A stretch of 61,841 nucleotides of DNA, filler included. It is 11 parts of 11 records of this genome, joined end to end, with 100 filler letters (N's around TTAATTAATTAA, not from the genome) between each part and the next. Parts side by side here need not be neighbours in the genome. Positions count along the whole stretch, not along the records: positions 15,606 to 20,735 come from SRR7504441_12743; 10 more parts are not named here. One strand, given 5' to 3'. This document shows positions 1-49,396 of the stretch, piece by piece. A program made the position numbers and the translations under genes. Position 1 is the first letter of the stretch. Each line of letters opens with the position of its first letter. The notes under the pieces are model-generated. The model made no database searches, had not been told where the DNA came from, and saw nothing but the letters and a program-made list of their open reading frames with translations.

Positions 1-3000
1 GCCCGAGCCTATGCGGCCCGGAGGTGGCCGAGGCGTCCTGGAACGAGGCTGCACAGCTCGCTAGGGCGGTTCTACCCAGAGTGTGGCTGCTGGCGGGAGT
101 AGACCCAGAGGGTTGCTGGACCGGTCTGGGCCCTGACGATTACCGCGCGATCGCGAGGGCCGAGGTGCGCGGTGCGAGACGGCGGACTGACTAGGGGCAG
201 CAATGGCTGGCCATTGAGTGTGAGAGGAGCACTGTGACAGCGATCTGGTGCGGGCCGTGGGGTGTGCCCGGGCTGAGGTGGGGCCCAGGCGGCTGGTGGC
301 ACGCAGCATGGCGCTGCTGCTGCTGGGGCTGGCACCGGAAGAGTTCGCACCGAAGCGCCTGAAAGCGCTCAAGAAGCAGATCTATACTGCAATGGTGCTG
401 GCGCAGGAGGTGGACAATGATATAGCTTCGTACCACCTCACAGATCCCGAGCAAGTGGCGGTGCGAGGGATGGCAAAGCTCGTGGCCTGCAGGGCCATCC
501 TGGCGCTTCCTGCAGAGCCTGATTCAGCGGACGCCTATGCACGCCACTGTGATGAAGCGCCAAAGCTGGCAACAGATGCGCTTGATTTGGTACCTCAGCA
601 TCCTCAGCCGTTTAGATTCTGGCGAGTGGCCTACCGCACACTGCAGCTGTGTGGCACAGTCAAGGGTGCTCGAGAGGTCTGGCTGCAGAACAGCGATGAA
701 AACCTATCAAGTGGTCTAGTGCAGCTGCTAGGTATGGACCAAGGGTGCACCACGGCGCTGGGAGGGCCTCTGGATGAGCAAGCCGAGAGCGTATCATCCG
801 GAGGAGTGAGCACGGGCGAAGTAGCGCTGTATATGCACCCAGGAGTGCTGTGCCCGTTCGAAATGCCTGAGGACGAGGATAAGGCCAGATGGTATGGATC
901 AAATGGCAGGACGTGGGTGCCATACGAGCCTCGGTTTTCACGGATAATAGAGGAAGGGTACCAGCGAGTGCTTGCGGATCCAAACGCGGACTATCCACGC
1001 ATTTCGTACGGTGGCGAGAATTTCATGATCAACACGAGCAGCATGTTTAGCTATTGCCTGAGGCGGAAAAATACAAGCCCCGTGCTCAGAAAAGAGCTGA
1101 AAAGTGAAGAGGTAGCTGATTTACTGAGAAGGACTAGATTTTCACTCTACTGCTTACAGGAAAAGCAGAAGGAGCTCTTTGCAAAGCATTTCGGTGTCGG
1201 AGAGTTGTGGGGGCTCTCGGCGTCTGCTTGCATGTCATCAGCCCAGGTGATGTGCTCTGAGCAGGAGAGTAAAATGAGCGTGTGCCGTGTAGGAGAGGGA
1301 GATGATTTCGTCCATTCATGGCTCCAAGGACGCTGTGAGTGTTGTGTGCAACCAGCTCGAAATGATCGAGCAAATCAATCGGGCGGAGGCTCAGGCAGAG
1401 CTCTATTCTACACCCCTGCCTAAGTTCAGCAGCCAGCCATCGCTGGCTGAATACAAAGCCGCGATGGATGCAACTGGCGGCTCGCCACTAGATCCCTGGG
1501 ACATGCAATCCGAGTATGAATCATCTGAGCGGCCAGCTACGCTTCTCTGGAGAGTCGTGTCTCCAACGGTTGGCCTGACATCAAAGCTCTTGCCTGATCA
1601 GCAGTTTGCAGGGCGTCAACATACGCACCGAACCGCGAATTACTTCCGGGCCGGACGACAATAAACATGGAAAACTGGATTTTGGCGAGGTTGTGAGAAC
1701 CACCGGCCAGGTTGTGTCTAGCCTAGTGCTGGTGCCAAGGGTTGTTAGGTGTCGGATGACGGCGAATGGGTTGAACTACAGGCGTGCAGATATGCGAATG
1801 GGTTGAACAGCCATCTCTGGGCACGCACTTGCCGCCGTTACGCCGTATCTACAAAATCATTCATGGTGTCTGCGTGTGAGCCGTGGGCCAGTCGTTATAG
1901 CCGTGAGCCCTGTGTGCTGGCGAGCGCAATGGACAATTGGCCAGACTTTGATCCACAACTACGAAACTGTCTCCTTCAAGATGCGATTTCAACTCAAGAT
2001 TGCTTGGGACTGGTGCTTGGATTTGATGGATTTGATGAGGAGGGCGAGCTGTCTTCCGATTTGAGCACTTTGCGCCTCACTCAATTAATGGAGGAAGCGT
2101 TCAGCGAGAGTCAGGCATCTGCCTCGGCAGTGAGGGTGCTTGGGGTGATTCTGTCTAGTGCTCGACTTTGGCGTGACGGCAACTCTACTGAGCTGCTGAG
2201 TTGCGCCAGCTTGCTACTCAGATACGGAGAGGCCGAAATCAAGCGGATTGCGAGTCAGGTGGTCACTAGTGATGGATCAGAGGTTGATCTGGGCTTAGCT
2301 GCACCAAGCAAACCTTTGTGCCTGCTCTTGCGGCTACTGTGGAATCTAGCGTCCTTGGGGTCTGCAGGGCTTGAACATAGGGCAGACAAGGTGAGACCTA
2401 TCAGCTTGCAAATGCAAGAAGACATACAGCGAATGCTCCTGGCATGTATGTCAGCACCAGAGGCCGTGGGCAACACATTTGAGTCAACCAGCAGACTCTG
2501 TGTGCTTGCCTTGTGGCAGCTTTTGTTCCTCGGAGCAGCATCCAAGGACAACGCTGCATTGGCGCAACTGCCTCAAGGGCTACAAGAGGCTGGTCTGAAT
2601 CACACACTTTGTCCTGAGTTAGAACACATTGCCCTGACTACCGAGTTCCAGCAGGCGCTGGACATTGCGAAGAACTGGAAATGCAACTATTTCCACAATG
2701 ATCAGCAAGGGGACAAGCTGCCTGATGACCTATATGATGCTTGTATAGATCAAGAGCAGCTCGAGGCTAACATGGCTGCATACGAATCCGAGTGTGCGCG
2801 AATAATGATGCCTCTTGATGATGCCATCTTGGGAGCTGGCACAGGACTCATACAAAAAGATAATGATGCCTCCCTCGAAGCTTTGCAGAATCAATTCAAG
2901 GAATTCGATAATGCCTCCCGGTCAGCATTTGCGGCACTGATGTGGCATGTCGAACCGCTGGCACTGCTTGAGGACCCGGAGGAGGCTCGGAAAGTCCCCA

Positions 3001-6000
3001 AGATGAAGTCGAAAGCCAAGCTGATCATGATGCAAGTCCAGGACAACGTGACAGCGTGGCTGCAAGAGCATTTGAGTGCTTCGACCGGACTCGAGGGAGA
3101 AGACCTACGCTTGCACATAGAAAAGGGAACGAGAGATGCGCAAGGGATTGTGGAACGGGCCGTTCTTATGCTCGAGTTACATTCAAGCCGATACTTGGAA
3201 TTGGCAGACCCCAAGCAATTAGAAACAGGTGCTGGCTCAGAGATAATCTCCTTGCTGCGCACTGACAGCTATCCTGGAGGGCGCTTGACTCGCGTAGGGA
3301 TGGGGTCTGGCGACCAGAGGCTTCATCTGGAGAGACTCAGACGAATTGTATCTGGTCGCTCTCAGGCAAATGAGGGCGACCCCCGAAAAGTTTCTTTGAA
3401 AGCTGTGATCTCAGTTTTGCTGCCACAAGGACAAGAGGCCACCATCGATACTACAGCTGTGAGGGAGGCGCTGAAGGGCCAGCAAGAAAAGGCGAGAACT
3501 CTGATGACAGCCTTGGATGCAATGGCTGAGGTTACGACACTCAATGGCCCAAAAGCCGATTTAGCTGCCTCGGTCCTCTTAGTTCTGAGTTCCCAGATGA
3601 ACCGAGATGGGTGGCTGCATCCGGAAGAACTTTGCATTGGCTGCGGCCTGTTGGTTGGAGACGCGGTGCGTCAGCAGTGGCACAAACTTGTGGCACATAT
3701 CATCGGCCGCTGTCCTGATAAGCTGGCTCAGATCGCAACCCTATGGAAGCCCGCCGATTTGAAGTTTGTGGCCGCCCTTGATTTGCCGTCGAGGCTGCTT
3801 CAAGTCGCCTCACAGGGTTCGGATCTTGCACCACATGCTTGGAAGCTCGTGAAGTCCCTAGTGCTGCTTGTTGCTGGGATGAGGCCAACAGATGACACCA
3901 GACTGGTTCAGCAATCAGTTGTAAACAGTGTTTTGGATCATTTGGAGCATTGCCTGCAGAGCAGTGATCTGGTGCATCAACGCAGCGAATTAGAGAGGCA
4001 TGGGAACGCACCATTCTGCTTGCTCGCCCTGATGCTACCACCAGAGATTGACGAGACCGAAATGCTGCAGACCCTAGCGACCCATGGTGGGAGCATCACA
4101 ACATTTGATGTCGTGTGGATCAAGCAAATGGCAGGTCTCTTGCTCAGGGTATGCTTAACACATCCAGGCTGGGAGCTGGCACAGGGCTCATTTGCGTTGG
4201 TGTTGCGAGTGTTACGCCAGCTCACAAATCTGGAATCTGCAGACGAAATTGCCAGAGACCATGGCTTCGGATCCCTGCCCAAGGGTAGGATGTTGAATGA
4301 CTGTGTTGGGAGCACTAATCAAATCACAGCAGAAACGGCACTGGGCAAGGAGGCACCGCCTGGTTCTGTGATGATTGCACTGCTTGCCAAGCTCTCTTTC
4401 ATGGATGATCAAGAGAGCGTGTTTTCGGAGCAAGCGCGTGAAGTCTTTTCGCAAATGGCGCAGGCGGCAATTCCTAGCCTCCGACAAGCGAGGATCATGC
4501 AAGACTATGAACTGCACCCCCTCTGGCAACCAGCCATAGATCATTTCGTCGCCAAGTCCATGGGTGTCGCCCTTCTGGCTGGTATGCCGCGTGATATCCC
4601 CATTGATGCTCTCAAGGTAATGCCTGAGCTAGCCACACAGCTCCACGACACCTCTCTTTCGCTCAAAGCAATGGGTGGCCAGCCCACGGTTATTCGCTCC
4701 GGAACTCACGCTCGCGGGCCCAGTGGGCTTGTTCTCGTGACCCACTATGAACTGGGCGACAAGTCATCTGACGTGCTTGTGTTGCCGAAACTGAATTCGA
4801 GTGAAACACTGGAGATCACTGCCCTGGAGCCGGTGAGTGGGATACAAGTACTAGGGACCCATGTGAAAGAGCTGCTCCAGGTGGTTGGCTGGCATGTAAA
4901 GCAGATGCTGTCGAACGAGCCCATGGATGACAGACAGTGTGTCAGCGGAGCACAACAGGCGTTGGCAATCAAAGCCCTTGCTACTCACATGACACAGCTA
5001 CCTGAGATCACAGCCGAGGCACTAGCCGAGCACGGGCTTGCTTGGGAGCTCATGCAAGTCGCACAGGATGCTCAGCTGGCAGGCAAGTGCAACATTGACG
5101 ACTCAATCCAAGTTTTGGAACTGCTTGCGTATCAAGTGCTTCTACCAATTGCGACTGGCCACGACAGCCGCGCCAAACTGGGCCCAGACATCCTTGCCCA
5201 GCTCGCATCTATATCATACGACTTCAACTGCCCCTATGCTAAAGTCCAAGAGATGTTTGAGGAACAAGGTGGACTCGATGCCTTCCAAAGTGACCCTTCG
5301 GGCCATCTGAATAAGGTGCGCAATGTAGCGTCACAGTACTTTATGGACCAGCAATCGGTGCAGTCCACTGAGCTTGATCCTGAACTCTTGTCTCTCTTTG
5401 ATTCAGCAACTTCTGCAGGGCGTGCTTCTTTTCTAAGCGGTGAATCAGATCTGTCAGCAGGACTCTCACCGGGATTACTCGTGACTTCGACCCCAGTGAG
5501 AGAGGAGACGGCTGAGGAGCTCGGCATGCAGTCAATACCAGTTGGTGTAGGCAAACTTGAGCTGTCAGAGAAACATTTGCTCATTCAAAAGCTTCTTGGC
5601 AGCGAGGAAGAAGTTTGGCGGACCAGCGCACAACTATTCTTGGCACGGATTTACAGACGACTTGCCAACTTGTATGCCATACAAGCTGCGAGCCAGCTAA
5701 TGCGGCACTGGCCTGCGTCTATTGTGATCGACACCAGCAAAGTAGGCCAGGTTTTGATGCTGATTTACAGGTGTGTAGCGTGTGGCATGGGGCAAGATGG
5801 CATCATGGGCAGCATCCTGTCCATCCTGGCCAGGAAAGATAGTTCAGAGACTACTGTGGAGCTGATTCGAGCTGCTTTCCGCATCACAAACATGCATGTA
5901 CATGCCACAAACAATGGCGAGAACACCGAAGCTGCCTCACTGAATGTGGCTTTGGCGATCCTGTCTGCTGCCTCGCGACAGATTGCTGCTGATCATGTGG

Positions 6001-8318
6001 CCCAGGAATTGTTGACACGGCATGCGGTGGAGGCATTGATCACTGTGGCGCATGTCACGGTGGGCAGTCAGCGCAGAGAAGCGATCCTTCTATTACAGCA
6101 GGTGGTTTCAGCAATCCCTGATGCTATCAAGCTTGCTGGGTCGGCAAAGAACTGGACTGAGATGTTTGCTGGACTACGGAATGGCCTTTCCCACACACTC
6201 ACTCAGAGCCAATCCGGCAGTCTGCTCGGCTCACTCTCGCTACAGAGCTATGCTGAGTTGTTTCTCTCCTACCAGGAAGCGCTGCGCCGGTCGGAGCCTC
6301 CAGCCCGGGACACTCTGCCCATCCGCCTGGAAGATGTTACAGAAAGTGGCGCCGTGAGCTTGAATGAAGTATACTGTGAAGTCACGGCGCCAACGGACTT
6401 GAAGTATACCGTGAGATCAATCAGAGAGCTGGCAGCCGAGCTCTCTGAGGGCGACAGAGCGCTGGGGCGGTTTATAACAGTCGCAGATGCTGCCACTGCG
6501 CTCCTTGAAGGCCGTGCACTACCGAAGTGCTTTACTTTGGGAGTTCTCAAGGACGGACTGCCGCCCACCTGTCCACGTTGTGGCAAGGACCTCGCCGAGT
6601 TCTACACAACTCATGCTGATTTTACTTGTGACGTGTGCTCGGTGAAGCTTCCTTTGGGTTCCAGATGCTACAGCTGCCGTGACTGTGACTTTGACATGTC
6701 CGAGGAGATAGCCGAATGGCAGAGATGGCTGACTCTTGTTGAAGTGACGGCAGCGATGACCAACGACGACTGGACCCATCCAGAGCTGATAGATCACAAC
6801 TGGAGCATTGTTGAAGTGCCGCTTTGGAGCTTTGAAGATCACCAACAGCTAGCGGCATGCCTCGATTCGTTCGGTGCAAACTTGTTCAAACTCCCAAGCT
6901 GGGCTGATCAGGATCTCACACCGTTCCCTAGGTTGGAGGGAAAGCCGGTGGATGAGCTGGTATACTACAGTCGCATGCTGGTACGGTTCTCAAAGCTGAT
7001 GATGTCTGTGCTGCCCATGCTTGATCTGTTCTCGAAAGAGGAGCGATCAGCTAAGAGTGCTGCGATTCGGAAGATGCGGTCGCTGATACTAGGCTATGAC
7101 AAGACAGAGCTGGTAGCCATGCTGCTAGGAAAGTGTAAGAATGCAACAACTGGAAACCAACAGCCCGGGGGGGGTCGAGGTGCCTGGCTCGACCTCCATA
7201 TTGATCGCTTGAGTGCTGCTCCTGGAAATTCGATTTTCAAGCAGGTGTTCGACGCCTTGCGAGAAGCAGATTATCACACCTACAATGACATGTACCGTGG
7301 GACGTACCACGGCCAACAGATGGAACAGATCTGGTATATGCATTATAAAAATGAGCGCGCAATCGACTACGGAGGAGTATTCCGAGAGACCTTCTCAAAT
7401 CTTGGACCGGATCTGTGCTCCGAGAACAACGACCTATTCATACCGGTGCCAAACTCTTCAGGAGAAGTCGAAGCTGCGCTGTACCAGGACTGTTGGATGC
7501 CCAATCCAAGCTGCCAGGCTTTTGACCAGTATGAGTTTCTGGGCAGACTGATGGCGTACGCCATCCTCTCAGACGAGTCACTCTTGGTTGCTCTGCCCCC
7601 GATGATATGGAAGCAGATCGCTGGATTCAAGCCAGACAAGCGCGATATGAAGCAGATCGATGCTGCGTGGGTGAGTAGTATTGAGCACGAGGACCACCTG
7701 GACATTTCAGAGACCCTGGGCGCGGAGCTCTGGGAATTGTCTTATGAATCGCCGTGGAAAGTCGACCTCTCCAACAAAGTTGCAGTGGAGCTCAGGCCGT
7801 CGGCCCTGACTTTTGGCGCGGCCTGTGTTACTTATGCGGAGCGGTTCGAGTGGGTGAACCAGTGCTGGGAGGCCAGACTGGCCGAATGTGAGGTCCAAGT
7901 GGACGCGATCAGGCGTGGAGTCACTTCGATCATTCCCATACAGGTCCTCAAACTATGGACAAGTAAGCAGCTCGAGACTGCGGTCTGTGGTGAGGCCGAC
8001 ATACCGGTGGACGCCCTGAAAGCGAGTGTAGAGTGGGATGATATCAGTCCCGATGCTGAGGAGGTGCAGCACTTCTGGTCAGCAGTGGAGCGGCTCGAGA
8101 ATCCCAAAGAACGATCGCTGCTGATTCAATTCATCTCGGGTCGGTCCAGGCTTCCTTGCAAACTGAAAATTGCTCGAAAGTTCTCCTCTGCTGAAGACTA
8201 TCCCTTTACACACACGTGCTTCTATACCATTGATCTCCCACCCTGGAGAGATGCAGAGGTTGCCTACGAGCGTATCCGGTACGCTATTTATAATTGTATG
8301 GAGATTGACGGGGATTGA
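1..8318 (+). CDS. Giant HECT E3 ubiquitin ligase (HERC-like C-terminus) with WWE, SH3b-like and ZZ-like Zn-finger regions; 5' partial, spliced
   Basis: ORFs 248..1423, 1302..1664, 1606..1806 and 1749..8318 join in frame via GT-AG introns 248-288, 1247-1292, 1569-1611 and 1711-1748 (plus probably ~165-194/200). HECT motifs AIDYGGVFRE, YEFLGRLMAYAI and FISGRSRLP, catalytic PFTHTCF, ending CMEIDGD. WWE-like WYGSNGRTWVPYEPRFSRIIEEGY. Zn-finger-like CPRC..CDVC..CYSCRDCDFD. Confidence 0.9.
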
Positions 8319-8387: not shown

Positions 8388-8487
8388 NNNNNNNNNNNNN
8401 NNNNNNNNNNNNNNNNNNNNNNNNNNNNNNNTTAATTAATTAANNNNNNNNNNNNNNNNNNNNNNNNNNNNNNNNNNNNNNNNNNNN
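8388..8487. other. Artificial contig linker (N44-TTAATTAATTAA-N44); identical copies at 15506-15605, 20736-20835, 26801-26900, 31622-31721, 35607-35706, 39146-39245, 42477-42576, 46103-46202, 49297-49396
   Basis: Ten identical 100-nt N-runs, each with a core that gives stops in all six frames. Confidence 0.99.
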
Positions 8488-9464: not shown

Positions 9465-11963
9465 CTAGCACCCCATCGCCTGAACAAACCCATCCTGGTG
9501 CAAGCACGCCGTGCCGCCGACCGCCGGTTCCACCTCGACTGTGTACCGCATAAGGCGTTGCTTGTTGGCCTGACATTCGCCCCAGGCGACCCAGATCGCG
9601 TGACAATCCGTCTTGGTCACTGCGGGGCAAGGCATGGTAAAGTTTTCGACCAGCACTTTTCCACTGGCCAGCCCAGCTCGGATTGCCGCTGCCTCTGGCG
9701 TGTAGTCGCCACTGCCTGCGCTCGGGACTGCATCGAAGAAGTCTTTAACGTATGGCCGATACATTGAGGCCACAGGAATTGACCGACGCCACTGGTCGCA
9801 CCGCAGACCGATCCTGGTGGTATCGAACCCATGCCTCGGGCTGACAAACTCGAGCTGCGAAGCGTGTGGGAAATCGGACCATTCAGCCTCGAGCGAGCCA
9901 GTCTGGTCAATCAAGTGTGGCATCCCCGGGTGAGGCAGATCGCTGTCGCAAAATTCGCCAGGTTCGGTCGGCGTGCCGTGGTAGCTCACCAGCAAGCAGA
10001 TGTTGCCGGCGCTGTTGTTGAGGAAGACGTTGTCGCGGAAGTTGGATCGAGCGGCCGATGCCCACCCCTCGGTGCTCGAATTGACCTTGAGCAGCTCGCC
10101 AAACGTCGGGAAGCGGGCAGCAAACAATGTGCTAAAAAGCGCCTCAAAATCGGGTACGCCCAACGCTTGCTCTGTCTTCCAGATGTAGTCGCCCTTGTCG
10201 CCTCGCTTGAGAGTGCCGTTGTCGTACAGAGGCAGATCACGGGTCATATCATCGGCGTGCTGATTGTAAATTCCAACCCCACCGTTGATGACCAGGTTGT
10301 GCGTGATGTTGTTGGCCGCGCCGCCATTTACCAGGAATGACCGGCCGGCCGCTTTGTACATGACATTGCCGGAGCAGTTGGACACCGAACCCTCGTGATC
10401 GTCAAAGTATATTCCGCCCCGGCCGTGAAGCCCAGGCACCTCCAGGCTGTGGTGCACGAAGTTCTCACGATACTGCATCCCGTAACCGGCGGTCAGCGAA
10501 GCCCCGCTGTAGATGACTCCTCCATCTCCTTCACTAAAACCAGTGTTGAAGATCTCGTTGTGGTCGATCATAAGCAACGGACCGCCCGGGAGCAGCAGCT
10601 GCGAGGCCGAGTCATGCAGCAGATTATGTGAGAATCTATCGCCCGTGCCTCGGATCCTGATTTGCCAGGCTGAGCCATGCCCGAACCGCTGTGTCAAGTG
10701 GTTGTTGGCGATCAGGTTGTTGGTCGGCCGGATGTTCTCTAGTGAGTCTCCCGGATTACCCACGCTATCAATGTGACTGCCCACATCGATAATATCGTTG
10801 CCCAGCACTCGATTGAAGTAGCCTCCAGCAAGCGAGACGCCGCCAGCCGAGTTCTTGAACACACAGCCAGCGACAGTGTTATTCCCGCCGCCTGAGATAC
10901 TCACTGCTGTGCCTGTGGACCCAGTCACAGTTACGTCCCGCACCGTCACCCAACTCGAGTCCTGCAGTGAGATCAGCCCTGGCCCAGACCTCACTCCAAG
11001 TGCCGGCTCACTGCCTTCAATCGGCCATAGGTACAGCATGCTGGCCGCGCCGTCCACCCAATATTCGCCCGGCATGTCCACCTCTGACAGCAGGCCGCTC
11101 ACTGTAAACCGGCCGGGCGCCTTGCCACAGGAGCCTGAGCTGCCCTCGAGCGCCTCGCAAATCCCATAGCGTGAGTAGCTTGCAAACTGCACCGAGGTGT
11201 TGTCCTGCGACCGGACCACCTTGGCCATGTGGTGAGTCTCTCTGTACCAGTCAGCGTTGAAATACCCGGTCAGCGAGGCTCCTCCAAACCCGGGGCCAGC
11301 GGATAGCTCGGCCTGCCAGTCTCCACCCGGCTGCGCTGCGAGCGATATGTTGGCGCCGCACGGGGCGGCCGCGGTGCTCTTGTCCGAGCCCTCGCACAGG
11401 TGGCACTGCGGCCGGGGCCCCTTGGTCCGACCCTCGGCGTACACGGCGCCCTGGTCGAACACCCGCCGCACATACGCCAGGCCGTGGTTGGGGTATATCG
11501 AAGGGGTGAGTGGGACGCTCCGAGCGCCGTGGCCCCACTCTAGCGCCCCGGAGGCCCAGGCCGGGAGCGGCATCGTCATGATCTTGCCCCGGGCCGCCGG
11601 GTTGATCAGCGCGGCCACAGTGGCATTGGCCACAGGTTTGAGGTTGGAGGCGTCCAGCGGCCGTTTGGCGTCGAACACCACGTCGCCCCGGCCGCGGAAG
11701 AGCACTGGGGCAGCGGCCGACCCGCTCAGGCTGACGGTGCCGCAGCTGGTGTTAGCGGTCAGAGGGTAGACGCCGGGAAGAAAGGTGATGGTCAACCCGG
11801 CCGAGCCGTGCGGGCTGGCCAGGCGGACCGCGGCCGCGCAGCTGGCGAGCGGGGCGGCCAGGGTGCCGGCGGCCGTGTCGCTCCCGTTGGGCGAGACGAA
11901 GAGCTCCAGCCCCAGCCCGACTGCTGAGCATAGCAGCACAGCGAGCGCAGTACGATGGCCCAT
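9465..11963 (-). CDS. Secreted right-handed beta-helix (pectin-lyase-fold) protein with C-terminal TSP1-like module
   Basis: Signal peptide MGHRTALAVLLCSAVGLG (ATG 11963). Motifs FVSPNGSDTAAGT, DGGVIYSG and GIYFDD, plus NxxxN ladder repeats. C-terminal DCHAIWVAWGEC..R.RY..P..GG.AC. Confidence 0.8.
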   Translation of the reverse strand: MGHRTALAVLLCSAVGLGLELFVSPNGSDTAAGTLAAPLASCAAAVRLASPHGSAGLTITFLPGVYPLTANTSCGTVSLSGSAAAPVLFRGRGDVVFDAKRPLDASNLKPVANATVAALINPAARGKIMTMPLPAWASGALEWGHGARSVPLTPSIYPNHGLAYVRRVFDQGAVYAEGRTKGPRPQCHLCEGSDKSTAAAPCGANISLAAQPGGDWQAELSAGPGFGGASLTGYFNADWYRETHHMAKVVRSQDNTSVQFASYSRYGICEALEGSSGSCGKAPGRFTVSGLLSEVDMPGEYWVDGAASMLYLWPIEGSEPALGVRSGPGLISLQDSSWVTVRDVTVTGSTGTAVSISGGGNNTVAGCVFKNSAGGVSLAGGYFNRVLGNDIIDVGSHIDSVGNPGDSLENIRPTNNLIANNHLTQRFGHGSAWQIRIRGTGDRFSHNLLHDSASQLLLPGGPLLMIDHNEIFNTGFSEGDGGVIYSGASLTAGYGMQYRENFVHHSLEVPGLHGRGGIYFDDHEGSVSNCSGNVMYKAAGRSFLVNGGAANNITHNLVINGGVGIYNQHADDMTRDLPLYDNGTLKRGDKGDYIWKTEQALGVPDFEALFSTLFAARFPTFGELLKVNSSTEGWASAARSNFRDNVFLNNSAGNICLLVSYHGTPTEPGEFCDSDLPHPGMPHLIDQTGSLEAEWSDFPHASQLEFVSPRHGFDTTRIGLRCDQWRRSIPVASMYRPYVKDFFDAVPSAGSGDYTPEAAAIRAGLASGKVLVENFTMPCPAVTKTDCHAIWVAWGECQANKQRLMRYTVEVEPAVGGTACLHQDGFVQAMGC

Positions 11964-12016
11964 CTCGCGGAACTGCCTGGTCATAACGGACTCTTGGCCC
12001 GGCTCGGAGGTTCGCA

Positions 12017-13240
12017 ATGGCCTTTCCAGAGGAGCTACCGCCTGCAGTGCGGACGCAGAGCCCCCACCCGGGGATGGCGAACCCACCCCAGACTAAGCCC
12101 GAGTCTGGGCCGAGGCCGATGGCGCTGCATGCAGCCTTGAGCCGCGTGGTGTCTGAGCACGAGACATCAGCTGGGGGTTCGCAGATCCACCTGCGCGCGC
12201 TCCTAATCACACACGATTCCACCCTCCATCCCCAGCTAGGCGTGCGCCTGGATGCGGCGAGTTCTTGGAACTGCCAGCTCCCGCTGCTCCGTCTCCACGA
12301 GGTCGCCATAGAGCACCTCCTGCCTTCGTTCACAGCAGCGGAACTCAATCAGCTGGGGACGGTCTGCAAGACACTCGCGGGACACTGCCGCGATAGCCGG
12401 GTTTGGTGCCGGCTGCTCGGTCACAACTGGCCGCAGCTGTTCATGCCCGAGCGCGTCCAGATGGAATGCGAACGGGAGATGTACCGCAAACTGCGGCGCT
12501 GTGACCCACCCTTGGCGTCGCCAAGATGCCCACCCGAGTGTACCGTGCCCTCAGACGTGCTGCTACTGCTCGAGCTGCGGCTGCCGACCCGAAACATCCA
12601 CTTGACGAGCAACTTCCCCCAAACAAGCATTGTCAGGACTGTGGATGCAGAGGCACGAGCTAGTGACGATAACTATCTACGTCGGTGTTTCGTGTTTAGC
12701 CACCCTGATGTATCCTGTCTCACAGAGGCATTTCAGAGAGGGACAGAGGCCACACTATTTCTCGTGCGTAAATTCGATGGCAAAGTGGTAAATATGCCAC
12801 TGGATAATATTGAATACGGAACCGACGCATTCGATGGCAATGGATTTCAGTATGAGGGCGTCCTTTGGCCATCACCAGGTGAGCTCCAGCTGCAGCGCCT
12901 CAGTACGTTTCGTGATGGCCTAGCGTCCACAGAGCTGAACGTCCAGTTGCTACAGATCTGGAAAGATGAAAAGGACGGCAAGCTTGATGAGCAGGACGAG
13001 CGAAATAATATCGTAGCCGACAAGGTGGCCTTGTTCATACAGATATGGGAGTGGACAGAAATGTATCACGATGCTGGATTGGGAGCCTACTATCCAGACG
13101 TTGGCATTGGGGATGATGTGGGAGAATGGATCCATCGCGCTTTTGATCAACACGATGTGGTTTTGGATCCAGAGGATAATAAGTGCGATTTTGAGGTTCC
13201 TGATATTCCAGACACACTCAGTGGGTTGGCATGGAAGTGA
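12017..13240 (+). CDS. F-box protein (start could be 12017, 12074 or 12119)
   Basis: LHEVAIEHLLPSFTAAELNQLGTVCKTL...VWCRL is an F-box pattern. Intronless 407-aa ORF. Confidence 0.7.
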   Translation: MAFPEELPPAVRTQSPHPGMANPPQTKPESGPRPMALHAALSRVVSEHETSAGGSQIHLRALLITHDSTLHPQLGVRLDAASSWNCQLPLLRLHEVAIEHLLPSFTAAELNQLGTVCKTLAGHCRDSRVWCRLLGHNWPQLFMPERVQMECEREMYRKLRRCDPPLASPRCPPECTVPSDVLLLLELRLPTRNIHLTSNFPQTSIVRTVDAEARASDDNYLRRCFVFSHPDVSCLTEAFQRGTEATLFLVRKFDGKVVNMPLDNIEYGTDAFDGNGFQYEGVLWPSPGELQLQRLSTFRDGLASTELNVQLLQIWKDEKDGKLDEQDERNNIVADKVALFIQIWEWTEMYHDAGLGAYYPDVGIGDDVGEWIHRAFDQHDVVLDPEDNKCDFEVPDIPDTLSGLAWK

Positions 13241-15505: not shown

Positions 15506-15643
15506 NNNNNNNNNNNNNNNNNNNNNNNNNNNNNNNNNNNNNNNNNNNNTTAATTAATTAANNNNNNNNNNNNNNNNNNNNNNNNNNNNNNNNNNNNNNN
15601 NNNNNCAGCAATTTTCTCGTCTGGAGGCTCAGCAAAAAAATCG

Positions 15644-17248
15644 ATGGCGGCAGCGGCCCGGATCGAGTTCGGTCCAGGGCCACGGCCGGCCAAGCGGCCC
15701 CGACGCGGCCAGGCCGGCCGGTTGAGCTGCCCGCTGCTGCACTGGCTCGACCAGCACGGCGCCACCGGCCTGGAGCAGATTCGGATCGGCTCGAGCGGCG
15801 CAGCGGGCCTCGGCTTGTGGGCCAGCTCGGCCATCGAGCCCGGCCAGCCAGTGGTGGCCATCCCGGCCGAGTGCGTGCTCAGCCCGGCCAAGGCGGCTGG
15901 CAGCCAGCTGGCGCGGCGGCTGCGGGAGGCGCATGGGGGCGAGTGCCCGGAGGAGCTGGCAATGCTCGCTTGGATGGCCGAGGGACGCACCGACAAGGAC
16001 CACCCATTCCACCCGTACCTCGCGTCGCTGCCCGCTGGCCCATCTGGCGCCGGGTTCTGGCCGGCCGCCGACCTGGCCGGGTCCCGGCTGGCCCCGGCGG
16101 CACGCGCAGTGAAAGCGCAGTACCGCGCCCTGTACGAAAGATACTTGCTACCGGTGAACGGCGCTCCGTCGGTCGAGTTGTTTGAGTGGGCCGCGGACCA
16201 GTACCACGCCCGTCGGTTCCCGTGCGAGCTGGCGGGGGACGGGAGCAAGTCAGGCGGGATCATGCTGCCATTGCTCGATCTGATGAACCACCAGCCTGGG
16301 GCCCGAGCCACCTGGCGGTGCGCAGATGGCAGGGTGTCCATCGAGTTGGGCCAGCAAGCCAGGCCGGGCGACGAGCTATGGAACAACTACGGTCCTTTGC
16401 CCAACCACACGCTGCTGCTCCGTCAGGGGTTTGCGCTAAATCATAATTGCTACGACTGGTACCCACTGCGAGTGAGAACTGGCGGCAAGTTTCGCGGTGT
16501 GGCGTATATTAGGAAGCCGGACGCGCGGTGGGAGCAATTCCCGCCGGAGCTGTGGCGCTGGCTGGGTGGTGAGCAGCGCGGCGATTGGGTGCAGGTCGAG
16601 GAGGACCAGCTCCGCTCACTGTTGGACCAGGTTCAGGCCGAGCTGGCTGAACTAGACCCTGCGGCTGAGGCCGCTGCGTCCGTCTTGCCGACCACCGACG
16701 ATTCGACCGCTGTAGCGCTCACGTCTGATCTCCAGGAGGCCATTGCCGGGACAGGGTATGAAGAATATTTGTCCGAATTTGGGGATATCAAACAGACCAG
16801 CAGGAGCTGCGATTTCGGCGAGTTTTCAGCACCTCCGAGGCACCTGCCAGCGGCTGCGAAGCATGGGCACGCGCTCTCGTCCAGAATACGGTACTACCAG
16901 CTCAGACAGCTGTGCGAACAGCAGCTGGGCATCGCTGCTCCTACGCTGTGCGCCTGTTACAACAAGAGCAGGCCGAAGAGTTCGCGCTTCCAAGTCACCG
17001 TGTCGTGCTCGGCTTGCACTGTGCGGAAGACTGGGCGTGCGCTCGGCCAGACCGAGCGTATAGTGTTGAAGTCAGTCCAGAAGAAGTTAAGATCAAAGGC
17101 GCAGGGCAGCAGGTGCGAAGGCCCATACGAAAACGCGGGAAACGAGAGGGCGCGCTGGGTGGGGGTGTATCATGCGGGGCTCGTGCAAGTACTGGAGGAT
17201 GCGATTGATAGCCTGCGCGCATTTCTTGCTAAGCTCGAGTCAGACTAA
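15644..17248 (+). CDS. SET-domain protein lysine methyltransferase (Rubisco LSMT/SETD3/Rkm type)
   Basis: GLGLWASSAIEPG, FHPYLASLP, MLPLLDLMNH and GDELWNNYGPLPNHTLLLRQGF. Confidence 0.9.
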   Translation: MAAAARIEFGPGPRPAKRPRRGQAGRLSCPLLHWLDQHGATGLEQIRIGSSGAAGLGLWASSAIEPGQPVVAIPAECVLSPAKAAGSQLARRLREAHGGECPEELAMLAWMAEGRTDKDHPFHPYLASLPAGPSGAGFWPAADLAGSRLAPAARAVKAQYRALYERYLLPVNGAPSVELFEWAADQYHARRFPCELAGDGSKSGGIMLPLLDLMNHQPGARATWRCADGRVSIELGQQARPGDELWNNYGPLPNHTLLLRQGFALNHNCYDWYPLRVRTGGKFRGVAYIRKPDARWEQFPPELWRWLGGEQRGDWVQVEEDQLRSLLDQVQAELAELDPAAEAAASVLPTTDDSTAVALTSDLQEAIAGTGYEEYLSEFGDIKQTSRSCDFGEFSAPPRHLPAAAKHGHALSSRIRYYQLRQLCEQQLGIAAPTLCACYNKSRPKSSRFQVTVSCSACTVRKTGRALGQTERIVLKSVQKKLRSKAQGSRCEGPYENAGNERARWVGVYHAGLVQVLEDAIDSLRAFLAKLESD

Positions 17249-17456
17249 GTCAGACAAGGTACATTACATATAAGCTTATATGACTACATAAGTACATACT
17301 CGTAGGACAACCGTGACAACGGATCACCCGCGCACCCTACGTACAACCAGCGGCGTAATTGTATAGATCCAGCGGCGGGCCCGCGTACAGGCGCTCTGTC
17401 ACTAAGAGGCTAAGTCTTCGCATTGCAATGCTATGGTCACGATATGACCACCAGCT

Positions 17457-18672
17457 CTAGCAGCCACGGTAGTCCTGCTTGGCTGCACTAGTGCTTGTCT
17501 TGGTGAATGGCACAAAGATCTGCGGATCGAGTTGGCTCATCTCCTTGAATGCCACTAGTCTAGCCACAGCGTCGCGGTGTGCCCATCCTTGAGGAACGCA
17601 CATTCCATCGCTCCGAGGCTTTGCAAAGAATGTCTTGCCATTCTGCAGATCGCCAGTACGCCACGCAAGCACGCCAGAGCTGTTGCCCACAAAAACCTGG
17701 TGTCTTGCACTACCGTAAGCCCAGGAATAAAAGCTACCACGCCCATATCTGTAGCAGTAGCCGTCGTCCCGAACCTGCCACTCGGCTTTATCCGGGTTCC
17801 GCGTGTCGTTGAAGTCGTTAAACGTGGTGACATTCTCAATCGCCGATCCATGAATGTGCCCGAGCTTTGTCCAACGGGTCTTCATGTTCGGTCCGTCCCA
17901 CCACACAAGATGCCGCACGGCGCCGTTCTCAGTTGTCTCCACAAACTCGGCTGTAAACGTGCCAGGTGCCTCACATTCAACGCTGGCTGCATGCGAGGAG
18001 GGAGCCGACAGCTTCTCAGTTACCTCTGTGCTGAGAGGCTGCAGAGCTGCGTCGCCGGCCTGAGGCACAAGTTTGATATCGGCGCAGTTGTAGAAGATTC
18101 CGAGCGTGTTGTTCTCGGGGTCAACCTCCGTTGGGGCGTGAGAGACGTATCTACCCCCACAGGGCTATCACAGGCACGGGCACAGCTACAGCACCTAATC
18201 CGGATGACACTGTGCGGCGACGGCTCGGCGGGCATCCGCACCCGGACAGAGAAATTGTTCTGCTGCACCATCTCCACGCCCCAAAAGTCCGGGACTTTAG
18301 CCAGCACGGCGAACGACTCGTCCGCAGGGTCGGCACCGGCCGCGTAGGCCACATCCATGAACCCCGGGTTGGGATTGTACCAGTGGTTGAGGTTCTGCTG
18401 GAAGCTGATCGTGGCCATCTGCCCGGCCGTGTAGGACACTGTGGGTGAACGAGGCGCCACGCCGTCGCAGTACGGGGTCCGCCGATAGCACGCGTCAGAT
18501 CCTGCGTGAGCGATCGAGAACGGTGCTGGCCCTGCCCCGGGGCATAGGCACAAACACGCCGGCTGCGCGGCGTACCTGAGGACTTGGAGGATCCGGCTCG
18601 CTGCGGTGGCGAGATCAGGCAGAAATGAGCGTGGGTGGACGCCACCACGGCGACCAGCCCGGCCAGTCGCAT
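17457..18672 (-). CDS. Secreted His-brace LPMO-like copper protein fused to an ependymin-like domain (365 aa, 2 introns)
   Basis: Exons 18672-18576, 18501-18195 and 18150-17457 (GT-AG introns of 74 and 44 nt; 1098 nt in frame). Signal peptide MRLAGLVAVVASTHA is followed by H1-FCLISPPQR. Also QQNLNH and IFYNCADI. Confidence 0.75.
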
Positions 18673-18881
18673 TGCTCGGGAGATGCACCTAACGTCAACT
18701 CTTTTTTTAGTAACCGGCTGAATGGGTCGAGCGGGTCTCTCATACGTACAGACGCGCAAGCTGAATCGTCGAGATGCTATTAGAGAGCGCTGGATGTTCG
18801 TAGGACATTCGATAGTATCACTGAGATTTTTGCACACCAATCGGATACCTCTCACATACAGGTTTCTAACAATTACATGAA

Positions 18882-20337
18882 TCAACCATGCTCGCCTTGG
18901 GCGATTACACCGTTCTTTTTCTCAACAAGCCAATCCCCGACACTGCTCGCCGACGAGGGCTCGCCCTGTGGAGCCTTTTTGTTCATTGCCGATATCAGCA
19001 TTTGCTTGAATTCGCCGACCCCTTCCGTCTGCTTGGGCGGACTATCACCGTTCAGCATCGCGGTGAGCCTGTCCACGCGCTGCTGGGCCGCCTGTCGGGT
19101 CTCATTAAACTCGAGTAGGGCCTGTCGCAGGTCGGTCTTGGATCCGTTAGGTTTCTGGGTCCGATCCTCCTTGAAAGTCCTAATCTGGGCCTAAACCATC
19201 CTCAGCTCAGCAGCCATGGCCAGCGCTATGCGGCCACGGACTAGCAGTGACCCTCAGACTGTTGTGTAAAAAAGTGAACAGTTACCGCTACCAGTTACAT
19301 AAGACGCGTCACACACAGTGACGCGGACTGGAGAGAGAGTGCCACCTCCACATCTTCAAGCGTCTCCATCTGTCGCCGCATTTCTTTTAACTCCGCCTGC
19401 CCATCCAGATTGCAGTGCACAGTGGGTGCGCTCACCCTCAGGCACGCCGATTCATCCTCAGCCGCCTGGGCCCGAGCCGACTCCGCCGCCAGCTCGTGGC
19501 TGCTCTCCGCGGCCTGGGCTTGAGCCGCCTTCTCGCCCATGGCCTTGAGAATGATAGCCTTTGCCGCCATTGCGGCGGCTTCCGCAGTGTCCTCCTCCCC
19601 AGCGGCCCCTGCACCCTCAGCGCTAGACTGCTCAGCTTGCGTCCCGTCGGCGGGCTGGTCCGGCTGGGCTGCGGCTTTACTCCGGTACAGCTGCTGCAGC
19701 TCGCCGATCTCATCGTCCAAGGCCGCCACCTCGGCCTCGATCGCCTCGCGCCGCTCCGGCGATTCCTCCTGCATCAGTTGCTGGGCCAGCTCCGACAGCT
19801 GCTGATTCTTGGCCTGGATCTGGGCCTGTAGGGACTCGACGCTCTTCCCGCGGGCGCGCTGCGCCACAGGCGTCAGAGAGAACTGCTTCCTGTAGAGCTT
19901 CTGTAACTTGGGTACCTATCACCGGCACTCAGCTGCTTTGCCACCCGACCCACCACCTCATTCTCCAGCGTGGCGATCTTCCGCTCGAGCCCCCGCCGCC
20001 TGTGGCCGGGTGAGCGGTGCTGAGCGCCTGGTCCACCTGGTCGGGTTGCGTTCGCCCATCAGCTTCTGAGCGAGGTCGCACAGCTCCTTGTTCTTGTCCT
20101 CGATCTGCCTCTGCATTGACGCCAAGGCATCGCTCGATGGCATCGTCCCCGCGGCCCGGGCAAGGTCGCTGACTATCCGAGAGTGGCCATGCCCCGCCCC
20201 GCTCGGTGTGGCAGAGGACCGAGTGTGGCCCAGCGCTGCATGATTGAGTCCAAATCCAACGGCAGCCGCAGCCCATCAAAGTCATCCGCGCAATGTGGTG
20301 TTCCGCGGGCCTTGGTGGCGCACTCGCACGATGACAT
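18882..20337 (-). CDS. Multi-intron coiled-coil protein with a duplicated ~53-aa helical module
   Basis: ORF pieces 19958..20143, 19295..19867 and 18882..19076 join via GT-AG introns (e.g. 20173-20219, 19191-19345). Start is uncertain (20337 or 20143). Confidence 0.6.
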
Positions 20338-20696
20338 TTTAGTATAGCTGGTATAACCATGGTGGTCCTGATCCTAATCCTGAGTGCGTGGCTGATTGCG
20401 TCCTCCCACACCCCGGGGCACACACTGGCAGCTGTGGCGATGGTGTCTTGCAAGGTTGCTGAGGAGGGTGGGGAGACCCATGGAGACCGCCCTGTCGATG
20501 GCAGGCCCGGCAGGTGGTGTACCGCCCGAGGGAGGTGGGGGACCTCATTCTATTCGGTTGAATGTTGAACCAGGAGCAAAGCTTGCGACTATTGAAGTCG
20601 TCAACCAGGCAAACCTTGCAGCGCAACGTCAAGTTTTTTTTTCTTTTTTCAAGAGTCGGCGAACGCAAGGACGTCGGTGGGATAACTGGGATTGAT

Positions 20697-20735
20697 ATGG
20701 TGCGCGCTTTGCTCCTGGCGCTCCTGGCGTGGTGC
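20697..20735 (+). CDS. Start of a probable secreted protein, truncated by the contig end
   Basis: MVRALLLALLAWC runs into the linker. Confidence 0.35.
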
Positions 20736-21153
20736 NNNNNNNNNNNNNNNNNNNNNNNNNNNNNNNNNNNNNNNNNNNNTTAATTAATTAANNNNNNNNN
20801 NNNNNNNNNNNNNNNNNNNNNNNNNNNNNNNNNNNCACATAGTCTATATGGATCCCAATATCCCTGGGCGATATCCCTAGGCCCTAGAAAATTATCGTTC
20901 CAAAAAGCGCTGTTATTAGGTAGCTACGTATTAGGGTGCAGACTTCGTACGGCTATACAACTGTAGGTTGATCATTTACGGAAGGTGACGCATATTTCCT
21001 GATCGAGTCTACGATCGAGAGTGGCCATCTCACGCCACACGGAGCAAAGCTTCAGGGCAAGTTCTGGCGGGCTCACCCGGAACAACGCCCGCGCCCGTGG
21101 GCGATGGGTCGGATGCGGGGATCGCACCGGCCTCGAGCGCCGTGCAGTCCGTG

Positions 21154-26709: not shown

Positions 26710-26900
26710 CGGGTGCCGATGTCGTTGTTTGATAGGAGCTCGAGTGCGGTGCCCGCCACTGGGTGAGCTCGTGAGCTTGGGTTGGGGCGTTGGCCGACTC
26801 NNNNNNNNNNNNNNNNNNNNNNNNNNNNNNNNNNNNNNNNNNNNTTAATTAATTAANNNNNNNNNNNNNNNNNNNNNNNNNNNNNNNNNNNNNNNNNNNN

Positions 26901-31322: not shown

Positions 31323-31721
31323 GACGCTTAGAATTAACTAGGGACTAGGAGTTCTGACTCAGCTCGGTACCACGGTTTTTATCTCACACTAGATCTAGCT
31401 AGCATATGCATGCATTCATTTGTTACATGTACGCGCATTCTTCATTACTACTAGTTTGTAGAGCGCGCCGATGGCGCGCACGTATTTGGTAGGGTTTAGG
31501 AATGTTGCTATATGATTGTTATTCGAATTAAGATCGATTTTAAATGTCAACGTAGAAACATCGAAGATCTTTCCGTTGGCCATGGAGCCGACCGGTGTGG
31601 ACAGAGTCAAGGAGCTGCCGCNNNNNNNNNNNNNNNNNNNNNNNNNNNNNNNNNNNNNNNNNNNNTTAATTAATTAANNNNNNNNNNNNNNNNNNNNNNN
31701 NNNNNNNNNNNNNNNNNNNNN

Positions 31722-35606: not shown

Positions 35607-35756
35607 NNNNNNNNNNNNNNNNNNNNNNNNNNNNNNNNNNNNNNNNNNNNTTAATTAATTAANNNNNNNNNNNNNNNNNNNNNNNNNNNNNNNNNNNNNN
35701 NNNNNNGTTGCCGCCGCCGCACCGGTGCCACACGGTGGTGGGTTCCGCTCGAGTTC

Positions 35757-39145: not shown

Positions 39146-39331
39146 NNNNNNNNNNNNNNNNNNNNNNNNNNNNNNNNNNNNNNNNNNNNTTAATTAATTA
39201 ANNNNNNNNNNNNNNNNNNNNNNNNNNNNNNNNNNNNNNNNNNNNTTATCGGCTTGGCACGGGCATTGGGGTCGATGACCGTGACCAGGCGCCGGCGCCT
39301 CGGAAGGCCAGCTCACCCCTTCGCCGAGCAG

Positions 39332-42476: not shown

Positions 42477-42597
42477 NNNNNNNNNNNNNNNNNNNNNNNN
42501 NNNNNNNNNNNNNNNNNNNNTTAATTAATTAANNNNNNNNNNNNNNNNNNNNNNNNNNNNNNNNNNNNNNNNNNNNCTTAGACCATCTGACCTCATT

Positions 42598-46092: not shown

Positions 46093-46366
46093 CGTTGCAC
46101 TGNNNNNNNNNNNNNNNNNNNNNNNNNNNNNNNNNNNNNNNNNNNNTTAATTAATTAANNNNNNNNNNNNNNNNNNNNNNNNNNNNNNNNNNNNNNNNNN
46201 NNAGGGCCCCGACTTTCTAATAAATGTACCTATATAGGGAGGGCGATGTCGCGTGTGCTCGTATATATAGCTGCAGATACAATGTACATGTCGATGGCCG
46301 ATTTTCCTTCGACAGCCATTAGTTGCCAACTGAACCATATGCATGCTCAAGCATTACTCGAGCATC

Positions 46367-49182: not shown

Positions 49183-49396
49183 CCTAGAAGCACCGTTATG
49201 CTCAAGGTGTACGTGTGTTTCTACACAGCAATCGTGGTATCATCACGGTCACAATCATACGAGTACAAGTCATTATCCCTAAGCGAAACTAGCGGTNNNN
49301 NNNNNNNNNNNNNNNNNNNNNNNNNNNNNNNNNNNNNNNNTTAATTAATTAANNNNNNNNNNNNNNNNNNNNNNNNNNNNNNNNNNNNNNNNNNNN

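Follow-up and report, generated by a model that had tools for sequence, protein, structure and literature searches.

Gene Structure at the Locus

The window considered here, that is, the whole stretch of DNA that was analysed, has a length of 61,841 nucleotides and consists of 11 contigs joined by linkers. Its main feature is a gene on the minus strand between positions 17457 and 18672, whose predicted product of 365 amino acids very likely has a two-domain architecture. The N-terminal domain (N-domain) resembles the lytic polysaccharide monooxygenases (LPMOs) and carries the sequence signature of a copper-binding histidine brace (His-brace), and the C-terminal domain (E-domain) resembles the ependymin-related (EPDR) proteins. 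The two domains are connected by a variable linker. The positions of the exons, introns, putative ligands and domains are given in Table 1, together with the other features of the window.

The coding sequence of 1098 nt is spliced from three open reading frames (ORFs) that lie in three different frames. A preliminary description of this DNA had proposed that two GT-AG introns join three uninformative ORFs into a protein of 365 amino acids, and the proposal is borne out by comparison with homologues. Sixteen open, in-frame GT-AG alternatives near both introns were scored against a family hidden Markov model (HMM) from which the window protein was left out, and the proposed junctions rank first with 390.4 bits over the full length, while the exons taken singly are blank in Pfam. 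For intron 2, the second-best alternative reaches 376.2 bits. The exon 2/3 junction is crossed without a gap by five homologues (P0003, P0004, P0005, P0006 and P0007) within a conserved R-Y-V-S-H-A-P-T-E stretch, and retention of intron 2 makes the frame depart from this stretch. For intron 1, the acceptors at 18526 and 18532 and the donor at 18557 give 384.7-388.6 bits, only 2-6 bits below the best model, so the exact junction of this intron is not fixed by homology. It sits in a variable loop, which the acceptor at 18526 or 18532 would lengthen by 8-10 residues, and His16, His72 and the conserved motifs are untouched by every alternative. The comparison with homologous sequences thus indicates that the gene is real, nuclear and interrupted by two short introns. 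Since the introns divide the domains, the gene is invisible to ORF-based annotation.

Table 1. Positions of the gene, its predicted elements and the remaining features, counted along the whole window
Feature	Position	Strand	Details
Start codon ATG	18672	-	First ATG in frame downstream of the upstream stop
Exon 1	18672-18576	-	Start codon, signal-peptide-like leader, first strand of the N-domain
Leader, residues 1-15	18672-18628	-	Best 8-residue Kyte-Doolittle mean 2.9; T at -3, A at -1
His16 codon	18625-18627	-	Predicted mature N-terminus; putative His-brace ligand 1
Intron 1, 74 nt, GT..AG	18575-18502	-	Top family-HMM score; rival sites 2-6 bits lower
Exon 2 (product P0001), N-domain core	18501-18195	-	67% identity to P0006; family N-domain HMM positions 21-120, E 2e-40
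His72 codon, motif Q-Q-N-L-N-H	18383-18385	-	Putative His-brace ligand 2
Intron 2, 44 nt, GT..AG	18194-18151	-	Five homologues without a gap there; next alternative 14 bits lower
Exon 3, stop included	18150-17457	-	Last strand of the N-domain, linker, EPDR domain; product P0002 is residues 136-365
Motif F-Y-N-C-A-D-I, residues 154-160	18075-18095	-	Phe154 is the candidate axial aromatic under copper
N-terminal domain, LPMO superfamily, residues 16-162	18069-18627	-	Split by both introns
Variable linker, residues 163-191	17982-18068	-	Without conserved columns; equivalent in the P0006 model has pLDDT 54-62
C-terminal domain, ependymin-related (LolA fold), residues 192-365	17460-17981	-	Family E-domain HMM positions 2-167, E 7e-42
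SET-domain ORF	15608-17248	+	23.5 bits against a cut-off of 22.4; tail to tail with the gene, ~208 nt between stops
HECT-domain ORF	1749-8318	+	2189 amino acids, uninterrupted
Beta-helix ORF	9465-12092	-	875 amino acids
Linkers 1-5	8388-8487, 15506-15605, 20736-20835, 26801-26900, 31622-31721		44 N + TTAATTAATTAA + 44 N
Linkers 6-10	35607-35706, 39146-39245, 42477-42576, 46103-46202, 49297-49396		44 N + TTAATTAATTAA + 44 N

Family and Relatives

Three partial relatives were retrieved with the exon 3 product, and P0006, a full-length protein of 425 amino acids that is the closest full-length homologue, came from a search for longer proteins with the exon 2 product. Over 365 aligned positions that include all three exons, the window protein and P0006 are 53% identical. 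The N-domains of the two proteins are 67% identical, and the N-domain tree groups them with 100/99 support. When 1.84 billion cluster representatives were searched exhaustively by HMMER with the exon 3 product, 74 proteins came out at E<=1e-3, 35 of them at E<=1e-10, and a word-seeded search with the family alignment yielded 47 proteins at E<=1e-5. All retrieved proteins were scored with separate HMMs for the two halves to decide membership. The resulting family has 106 proteins, 83 of which carry both domains, always in the order N-domain then E-domain (39 have both complete); these fusion proportions are biased upward by search seeds that included the EPDR part. Thirteen members carry the N-domain only, as short stand-alone proteins, proteins with other tails and some fragments, and ten carry the E-domain only, mostly as fragments, with a leader of their own in two. 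One protein of 2890 amino acids (P0068) was removed from the family as a chance match.

The relatives come from the JGI, ENA, Logan, EukProt, MMETSP, MERC and NCBI sets. The named sources are MMETSP and EukProt, a dictyostelid and two scallops, and the two scallop proteins carry the N-domain without EPDR. All family names are "hypothetical" or "uncharacterized", apart from a single UniRef label, "Chitin-binding type-4 domain", on a 161-residue N-domain-only protein of Tieghemostelium lacteum. The earlier characterization of the protein as hidden is accurate for this window; the relatives are present in public protein sets, where they are listed as hypothetical proteins. Among P0100, P0108, P0109, P0105 and P0106, the N-domain occurs as a stand-alone protein of ~160 residues in the dictyostelid and a scallop, and it also heads proteins of 409-551 residues whose remainder has no Pfam match. 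In the N-domain tree the domain-only rows are scattered and require 7 changes. Several of these may be truncated sequences, and therefore no order of events is drawn from the tree.

A scan of bacterial and archaeal genomes with the family alignment A3 gave 108 pattern stretches, none of them confirmed by tblastn, and a search of the Atlas with the whole of P0006 gave no usable match. A fold search of viral models gave no evident two-domain match; its named LPMO-type matches were a fusolin-type entomopoxvirus protein and GP37, with some unnamed proteins besides. No paralogue of the gene occurs elsewhere in the window.

The N-Terminal Domain

In all 30 of the family sequences that start with M and have a histidine at the relevant column, this conserved histidine follows directly after the leader. 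The 30 leaders are 13-42 residues long, with a best 8-residue Kyte-Doolittle mean of 2.05-3.44. At -1 they have A (15), G (11), C (2) or S (2), and at -3 a small or aliphatic residue. Judged by the -3/-1 rule together with conservation, His16 would be residue 1 of the mature protein. A histidine placed exactly at the signal-peptidase site is a hallmark of His-brace proteins. The elements on which the preliminary description had built its case are all found in the spliced product, with T-H-A at the end of the leader before His16, Q-N-L-N-H ending in His72, and F-Y-N-C-A-D-I near the end of the N-domain. They are also elements of the family, since His16 is conserved in 33/34 sequences at that column, His72 in 43/44, Phe154 in 66/67, Tyr155 in 59/67 and Asp159 in 63/68. 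With the histidine behind the leader in every one of the 30 cases, this sequence pattern agrees with the His-brace layout proposed earlier, and a copper His-brace is probably present in the N-domain. The comparison of Phe154 with the axial residue of AA10 and AA15 was a fair one, in that Phe occupies this place in chitin-active AA10s and in some AA15s (PMC5823890).

Conservation extends further around the putative site. Asp104 (51/51), Tyr136 (62/62) and Glu143 (64/64) do not vary, Asp82 is present in 42/49 sequences, and Q67, Q68, N69, N71, G79 and N149 are each conserved in at least 93% (Q68, N69 and N71 in 98-100%). The near-invariance of Q67, Q68, N69, N71, D104, Y136, E143 and N149 suggests a shaped active site beyond the two candidate ligands. 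Cys18, Cys37, Cys44 and Cys157 are conserved in 94-99% of sequences, the cysteine of the C-terminal motif in 99%. The window protein departs from the family at three conserved positions, A26, A140 and G273. A C-x-x-C pair just ahead of the strand L-R-x-R-Y is present in 8/8 members of alignment A3, where the window protein has S-P-H-S (residues 127-130); at the column of H129 within it, 40/53 sequences have His.

Profile comparisons were made by a Pfam scan of 76 proteins, the non-member P0068 included, with gathering cut-offs of 27 bits for BIM1-like_dom, 23 bits for LPMO_10, 32.3 bits for Ependymin and 75 bits for the NCBIfam model NF043005. BIM1-like_dom (X325, PF20238) matches 36/76 proteins at E<=0.01 and 7/76 reach its cut-off, with a maximum of 34.6 bits; P0006 scores 28.7 bits and lies above the cut-off. 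Wherever a BIM1-like match starts at model positions 1-3, the conserved histidine falls on model position 3 (14/14), which would correspond to His1 of X325. LPMO_10 (PF03067) matches 17/76 proteins at E<=0.01, and four reach the cut-off (P0063, P0100, P0101 and P0102), while P0006 remains below it with 13.5 bits (E 0.12). All 18 LPMO_10 matches, with that of P0006 among them, run to model position 183 of 183, and in 12/12 members with a listed motif position the model end coincides with the residue that closes the F-Y-x-C-x-D-[IV] motif. The bacterial SCE4755 model (NF043005, "polysaccharide monooxygenase-like") matches 10/15 proteins with E 1.7e-11 to 4e-4 and 20-44 bits, far below its cut-off. 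A feature search of the Atlas with the N-domain of P0006 ranked a mollusc cluster first, with PF20238 on 36% of its members, followed by bacterial SCE4755 clusters.

Structural comparison rests on AlphaFold2 models of two homologues, P0006 (mean predicted local distance difference test score, pLDDT, 79.7; predicted template-modelling score, pTM, 0.77) and P0046 (mean pLDDT 77.0). Of the 41 PDB fold matches listed for P0046, 38 are LPMOs (AA10, AA9, AA11, AA15) or fusolins, with E 1.5e-4 to ~2e-3, target-normalised template-modelling (TM) scores of 0.26-0.52 and identities of 10-18%. The same LPMO families are matched by the N-domain of the P0006 model. The modelled N-domains of the homologues resemble solved LPMOs, as the preliminary description had proposed for the window protein. 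No X325 structure is among the matches listed for either model (6IBJ is the entry named in PMC7924993), and no LPMO chain was matched at E<=10 when the family profile was compared with all PDB chains.

From the sequence patterns and homologue models together, the N-domain belongs to the LPMO superfamily and has a His-brace sequence signature; it is placed between LPMO_10, X325 and SCE4755 and in no established family with confidence. With X325 and Bim1-like proteins it shares the N-terminal histidine right after the signal peptide, the small size of the domain, the best curated match, and conserved aspartates that are candidates for a fourth ligand (D82 and D104). It differs from them in its distribution and its attachment, since X325 is described from fungi and Bim1 as anchored by glycosylphosphatidylinositol (GPI; PMC10952591), whereas the present family has no hydrophobic tail in 39/39 complete members and bears an EPDR domain. 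With the AA10 and AA15 LPMOs it has in common the predicted fold, the C-terminal aromatic/Cys/Asp motif, the axial Phe and secretion, but the N-domain is shorter and lies mostly below the LPMO_10 cut-off. The C-terminal partners of AA15 named in the passages of PMC5823890 on C-terminal extensions are CBM1, CBM14, GH18 and GH19, and not EPDR. To the SCE4755 proteins there is a weak but consistent match across nearly the whole 146-position model; that family is bacterial and itself uncharacterised, whereas the present one is eukaryotic. No paper containing the name SCE4755 was found in the literature searched.

The C-Terminal Domain

The preliminary description had likened the C-terminal part to ependymin-related and LolA-fold domains, and profile and fold comparisons both lead to the same place. 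In a comparison of the family profile, in which the window's exon 3 product is one row, with all PDB chains, only EPDR1 was matched at E<=10 (mouse, human, human and frog, with E 5.7e-11 to 3.1e-10). The alignment covers the whole domain, from profile positions 189-366 to chain residues 6-196, and aligns the four conserved EPDR cysteines. The top 11 fold matches of the P0006 model are EPDR1 or the sponge carotenoprotein EPD-BCP1 (E 6.9e-7 to 9.7e-6; target-normalised TM 0.54-0.68), and LolA proteins and VioE rank next. In this model the EPDR domain has a pLDDT of 86-98 for the most part, and of 59-65 over residues 281-300. The Pfam Ependymin family (PF00811) matches 8/76 proteins at E<=0.01, none reaching the cut-off (the best is P0090 with 28.3 bits), and two proteins, P0089 and P0090, have BIM1-like and Ependymin matches in one chain. 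On the strength of sequence profile and model, the C-domain is assigned as an ependymin-related domain with a predicted LolA-like curved-sheet fold. A phosphotriesterase, the sole PDB match of the exon 3 product by phmmer (E 0.049), was dismissed as being at chance level.

The family cysteines C194, C267, C319 and C353 are kept at 95-100% and align to the C42/C172 and C113/C210 pattern of EPDR1, and their spacing fits the EPDR "profile 1" (PMC6280359). P0006 also has Thr or Ser in the place of the fourth cysteine, as the window protein does, so this change is a trait of the clade and not a sign of decay. Both proteins keep the C-terminal Cys365, which suggests that the disulfide has been re-paired or lost in the subclade of P0006 and the window protein. 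Known EPDRs are described as stand-alone proteins, 213 residues long at the median and with a signal peptide of their own (PMC6280359), whereas here the EPDR domain sits behind a copper-type domain. EPDR1 is a homodimer with a hydrophobic groove of ~3200 cubic angstroms, it binds liposomes containing bis(monoacylglycero)phosphate (BMP) or GM1, and it has been proposed to be a lipid activator or transporter (PMC6363788).

As to the route of the protein, glycosylation sequons are conserved at N115 (44/60) and N148 (42/64), and a hydrophobic C-terminal 12-mer, as expected of a GPI-like or transmembrane tail, is present in none of the 39 complete members; the C-terminal tail of the window protein is polar. 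The conserved leader, sequons and cysteines and the lack of a hydrophobic tail suggest that the protein is soluble and follows the secretory or endolysosomal route. By eye, about nine of the 39 complete members have His as their last residue, for the most part in a short basic tail right after the last cysteine.

Proposed Mechanism and Alternatives

In LPMOs, copper is held by the amino group and the imidazole of His1 and by a second histidine, and polysaccharides are cleaved oxidatively. X325/Bim1, in which the same brace is accompanied by an Asp in the fourth site, does not cleave polysaccharides and takes part in copper uptake with Ctr1 (PMC10952591, PMC7924993, PMC7529816). By analogy, removal of the signal peptide from the window protein would leave a mature chain that starts at His16, whose amino group and imidazole would chelate one copper ion together with His72, with Phe154 beneath. 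A flexible linker of ~30 residues would connect this small beta-sandwich to the EPDR domain, which would hold the apolar part of a ligand or dock on a membrane. In relatives of the EPDR domain, lipids or other apolar ligands sit in a deep hydrophobic groove formed by this fold. The copper centre would thereby be brought to a substrate that is lipid-anchored or lies on a membrane surface, such as a glycolipid's glycan or an envelope polymer, and would perform LPMO-type oxidative chemistry there. The reading preferred here, and held tentatively, is accordingly that of a redox enzyme in which the EPDR pocket positions a redox-active copper on a lipid-linked or surface substrate. It is drawn from the invariant polar residues around the site, the catalytic LPMOs among the fold neighbours and the strongly conserved fusion, and the whole-model pTM of P0006 (0.77) gives a weak hint at a defined arrangement of the domains. 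An extension of this reading, which is unlikely but would be of consequence, is that the protein is the first His-brace copper oxidase with a substrate picked by a lipid-lifting domain, the EPDR pocket extracting or holding an apolar anchor while the copper oxidises the part presented. The anchor might then belong to a glycolipid, a lipopolysaccharide-like or another membrane-bound molecule; alternatively, an apolar reductant, for instance a quinol, might occupy the pocket.

Several observations weigh against the redox-enzyme reading or the assignments on which it is built. To our knowledge, the molecular function of EPDR proteins is unproven. The E/Q-x-F/Y motif, with its first residue two positions before the axial aromatic, serves as a pattern for comparison, and the family has A or G at this position instead. 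The N-domain is small (~147 residues), and the LPMO_10 matches, which start at positions 78-143 of the 183, are confined to the C-terminal part of the model. As the N-terminal part is unmatched, there is no detectable counterpart here of the long-loop region, which makes up most of the binding surface in AA10. BIM1-like/X325 is the best-scoring curated family for the N-domain, and the X325/Bim1 members that were tested bind copper and do not cleave polysaccharides, Bim1 not being redox active (PMC7529816, PMC7924993). The Pfam, fold and PDB evidence derives from homologues and from the family profile. The three exon products scanned singly match no Pfam family at E<=10, and phmmer with just the exon 3 product retrieves no EPDR chain from the PDB. 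Finally, the window protein has T353 in the place of the fourth EPDR cysteine, which is kept by 95% of the family.

Much of this evidence could be accommodated by a non-catalytic copper binder for uptake, buffering or delivery, comparable with fungal Bim1/X325 and its Ctr1 importer, which is the main rival and is judged nearly as likely as the preferred reading. On this view, catalysis would be blocked by an Asp in the fourth equatorial position, either D104 or D82 behind the invariant Gly79, and the EPDR domain would attach the protein to a membrane or partner in place of the fungal GPI anchor. The BIM1-like match is the sole curated one above cut-off for P0006 (28.7 against 27 bits), it extends at E<=0.01 to 36/76 proteins with the histidine on model position 3 in every one of the 14 informative cases, and the domain is as short as the X325 (140 positions) and SCE4755 (146 positions) models and leaves the AA10-type surface loop unmatched. 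The extra ligand of X325 is an Asp on a Gly-rich loop (PMC7529816), and the present family has Asp at D82 in 42/49 and at D104 in 51/51 sequences. Many relatives come from transcriptomes of marine microbial eukaryotes, for which copper supply may matter. These points are countered by the marginal Pfam scores (at most 34.6 bits), by the absence of X325 structures among the matches listed (top 50), where catalytic LPMOs fill the lists, by a GPI-like or transmembrane tail in 0/39 complete members, and by invariant polar residues that seem to exceed the needs of a simple chelator; there is also no copper transporter on the gene's contig, which is only 5.1 kb long. A conventional chitin- or cellulose-active LPMO, in which EPDR would be a passive accessory for dimerisation, stability or sorting without a part in substrate choice, is distinctly unlikely. 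The fold matches do include chitin-active AA10s (CBP21 and EfCBM33A), AA11 and AA15, an axial Phe is the pattern of most chitin-active AA10s (PMC5823890), the Tieghemostelium lacteum N-domain-only homologue bears the UniRef chitin-binding label, EPDR1 forms a homodimer (PMC6363788), and 13/106 proteins, some of them fragments, have the N-domain only. Against this stand the modest similarity to LPMOs (target-normalised TM 0.26-0.54 and 11-18% identity), the unmatched AA10-type loop region, the partners named for AA15, in the PMC5823890 passages on C-terminal extensions, as CBM1, CBM14, GH18 and GH19 and not EPDR, and the tight conservation of the fusion (83/106, from searches partly seeded with EPDR), which argues for a joint function of the two domains.

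The remaining explanations touch the metal site and the gene itself. The domain could be an LPMO fold without metal, for example a binding or adhesion module in which the conserved histidines have another role; this is very unlikely. A His-brace motif alone is no proof of enzymatic function (PMC7924993), and the family-level profile scores are weak, but a histidine at the cleavage site in 30/30, a second histidine in 43/44 and the Phe in 66/67 sequences form a pattern specific to the His-brace that is hard to explain otherwise. That the gene is an artefact or a pseudogene, with three chance ORFs joined by chance GT-AG pairs, is hardly credible. The 44-nt intron is very short, the acceptor of intron 1 is not uniquely fixed, and one family cysteine is lost (T353) beside the deviations at A26, A140 and G273. 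All the same, the product matches the family HMM along its full length with 390 bits and is 53% identical to P0006 through all three exons, the frame is intact with every putative ligand present, the exon 2/3 junction is exactly as in the homologues, and the change at T353 is shared with P0006.

Novelty and Significance

Each of the two domains is of a known kind, and it is their pairing that appears to be undescribed. The preliminary description knew of no characterised fusion of the two, and none was found in the literature searched: full-text searches, with subscription journals and supplements outside their scope, gave no paper linking LPMO, X325 or Bim1 with ependymin, or the histidine brace with LolA. 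The words "fusion", "chitin" and "copper" occur nowhere in the text of the paper on EPDR evolution, and the precomputed Pfam labels of the 47-protein search contain no row with both an LPMO-type and an ependymin family.

The conserved fusion of EPDR with a His-brace domain works like a "Rosetta stone" link, suggesting that the two activities cooperate, and it could give a hint at the function of ependymins. The position of the N-domain between AA10/AA15, X325/Bim1 and a bacterial family may help to define what distinguishes a copper enzyme from a copper carrier. In marine and phagotrophic protists, the family would represent an unrecognised secreted or lysosomal cuproprotein, which might serve the digestion of prey or envelopes or the supply of copper. 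If the lipid-lifting extension of the preferred reading is true, LPMO-type chemistry would gain a non-polysaccharide, membrane-associated class of substrate, and the ependymin fold would gain a defined role as a substrate-presenting (activator) module.

Genomic Context

The 11 contigs of the window, ~3-12 kb each, are split by ten identical linkers of 44 N, TTAATTAATTAA and 44 N, and TTAATTAATTAA gives a stop in all six frames. Because the linkers divide the window, gene neighbourhood is meaningful only inside each contig. The gene lies on the contig at positions 15606-20735, which also holds the SET-domain ORF and two ORFs without a family, and no neighbour with a functional link occurs on this contig. 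On another contig, the 875-residue ORF carries repeats of the right-handed beta-helix and NosD types (E 1.3e-9 for Beta_helix; NosD precisely at cut-off), and its location on a different contig leaves it without a link to the copper-type protein. The ORF of 2189 amino acids ends in a C-terminal HECT ubiquitin-ligase domain (E 8.4e-44). This and other very long ORFs suggest an intron-poor eukaryotic genome, and the HECT and SET domains together with the two introns of the gene fit a eukaryotic nuclear genome with ~50-65% G+C.

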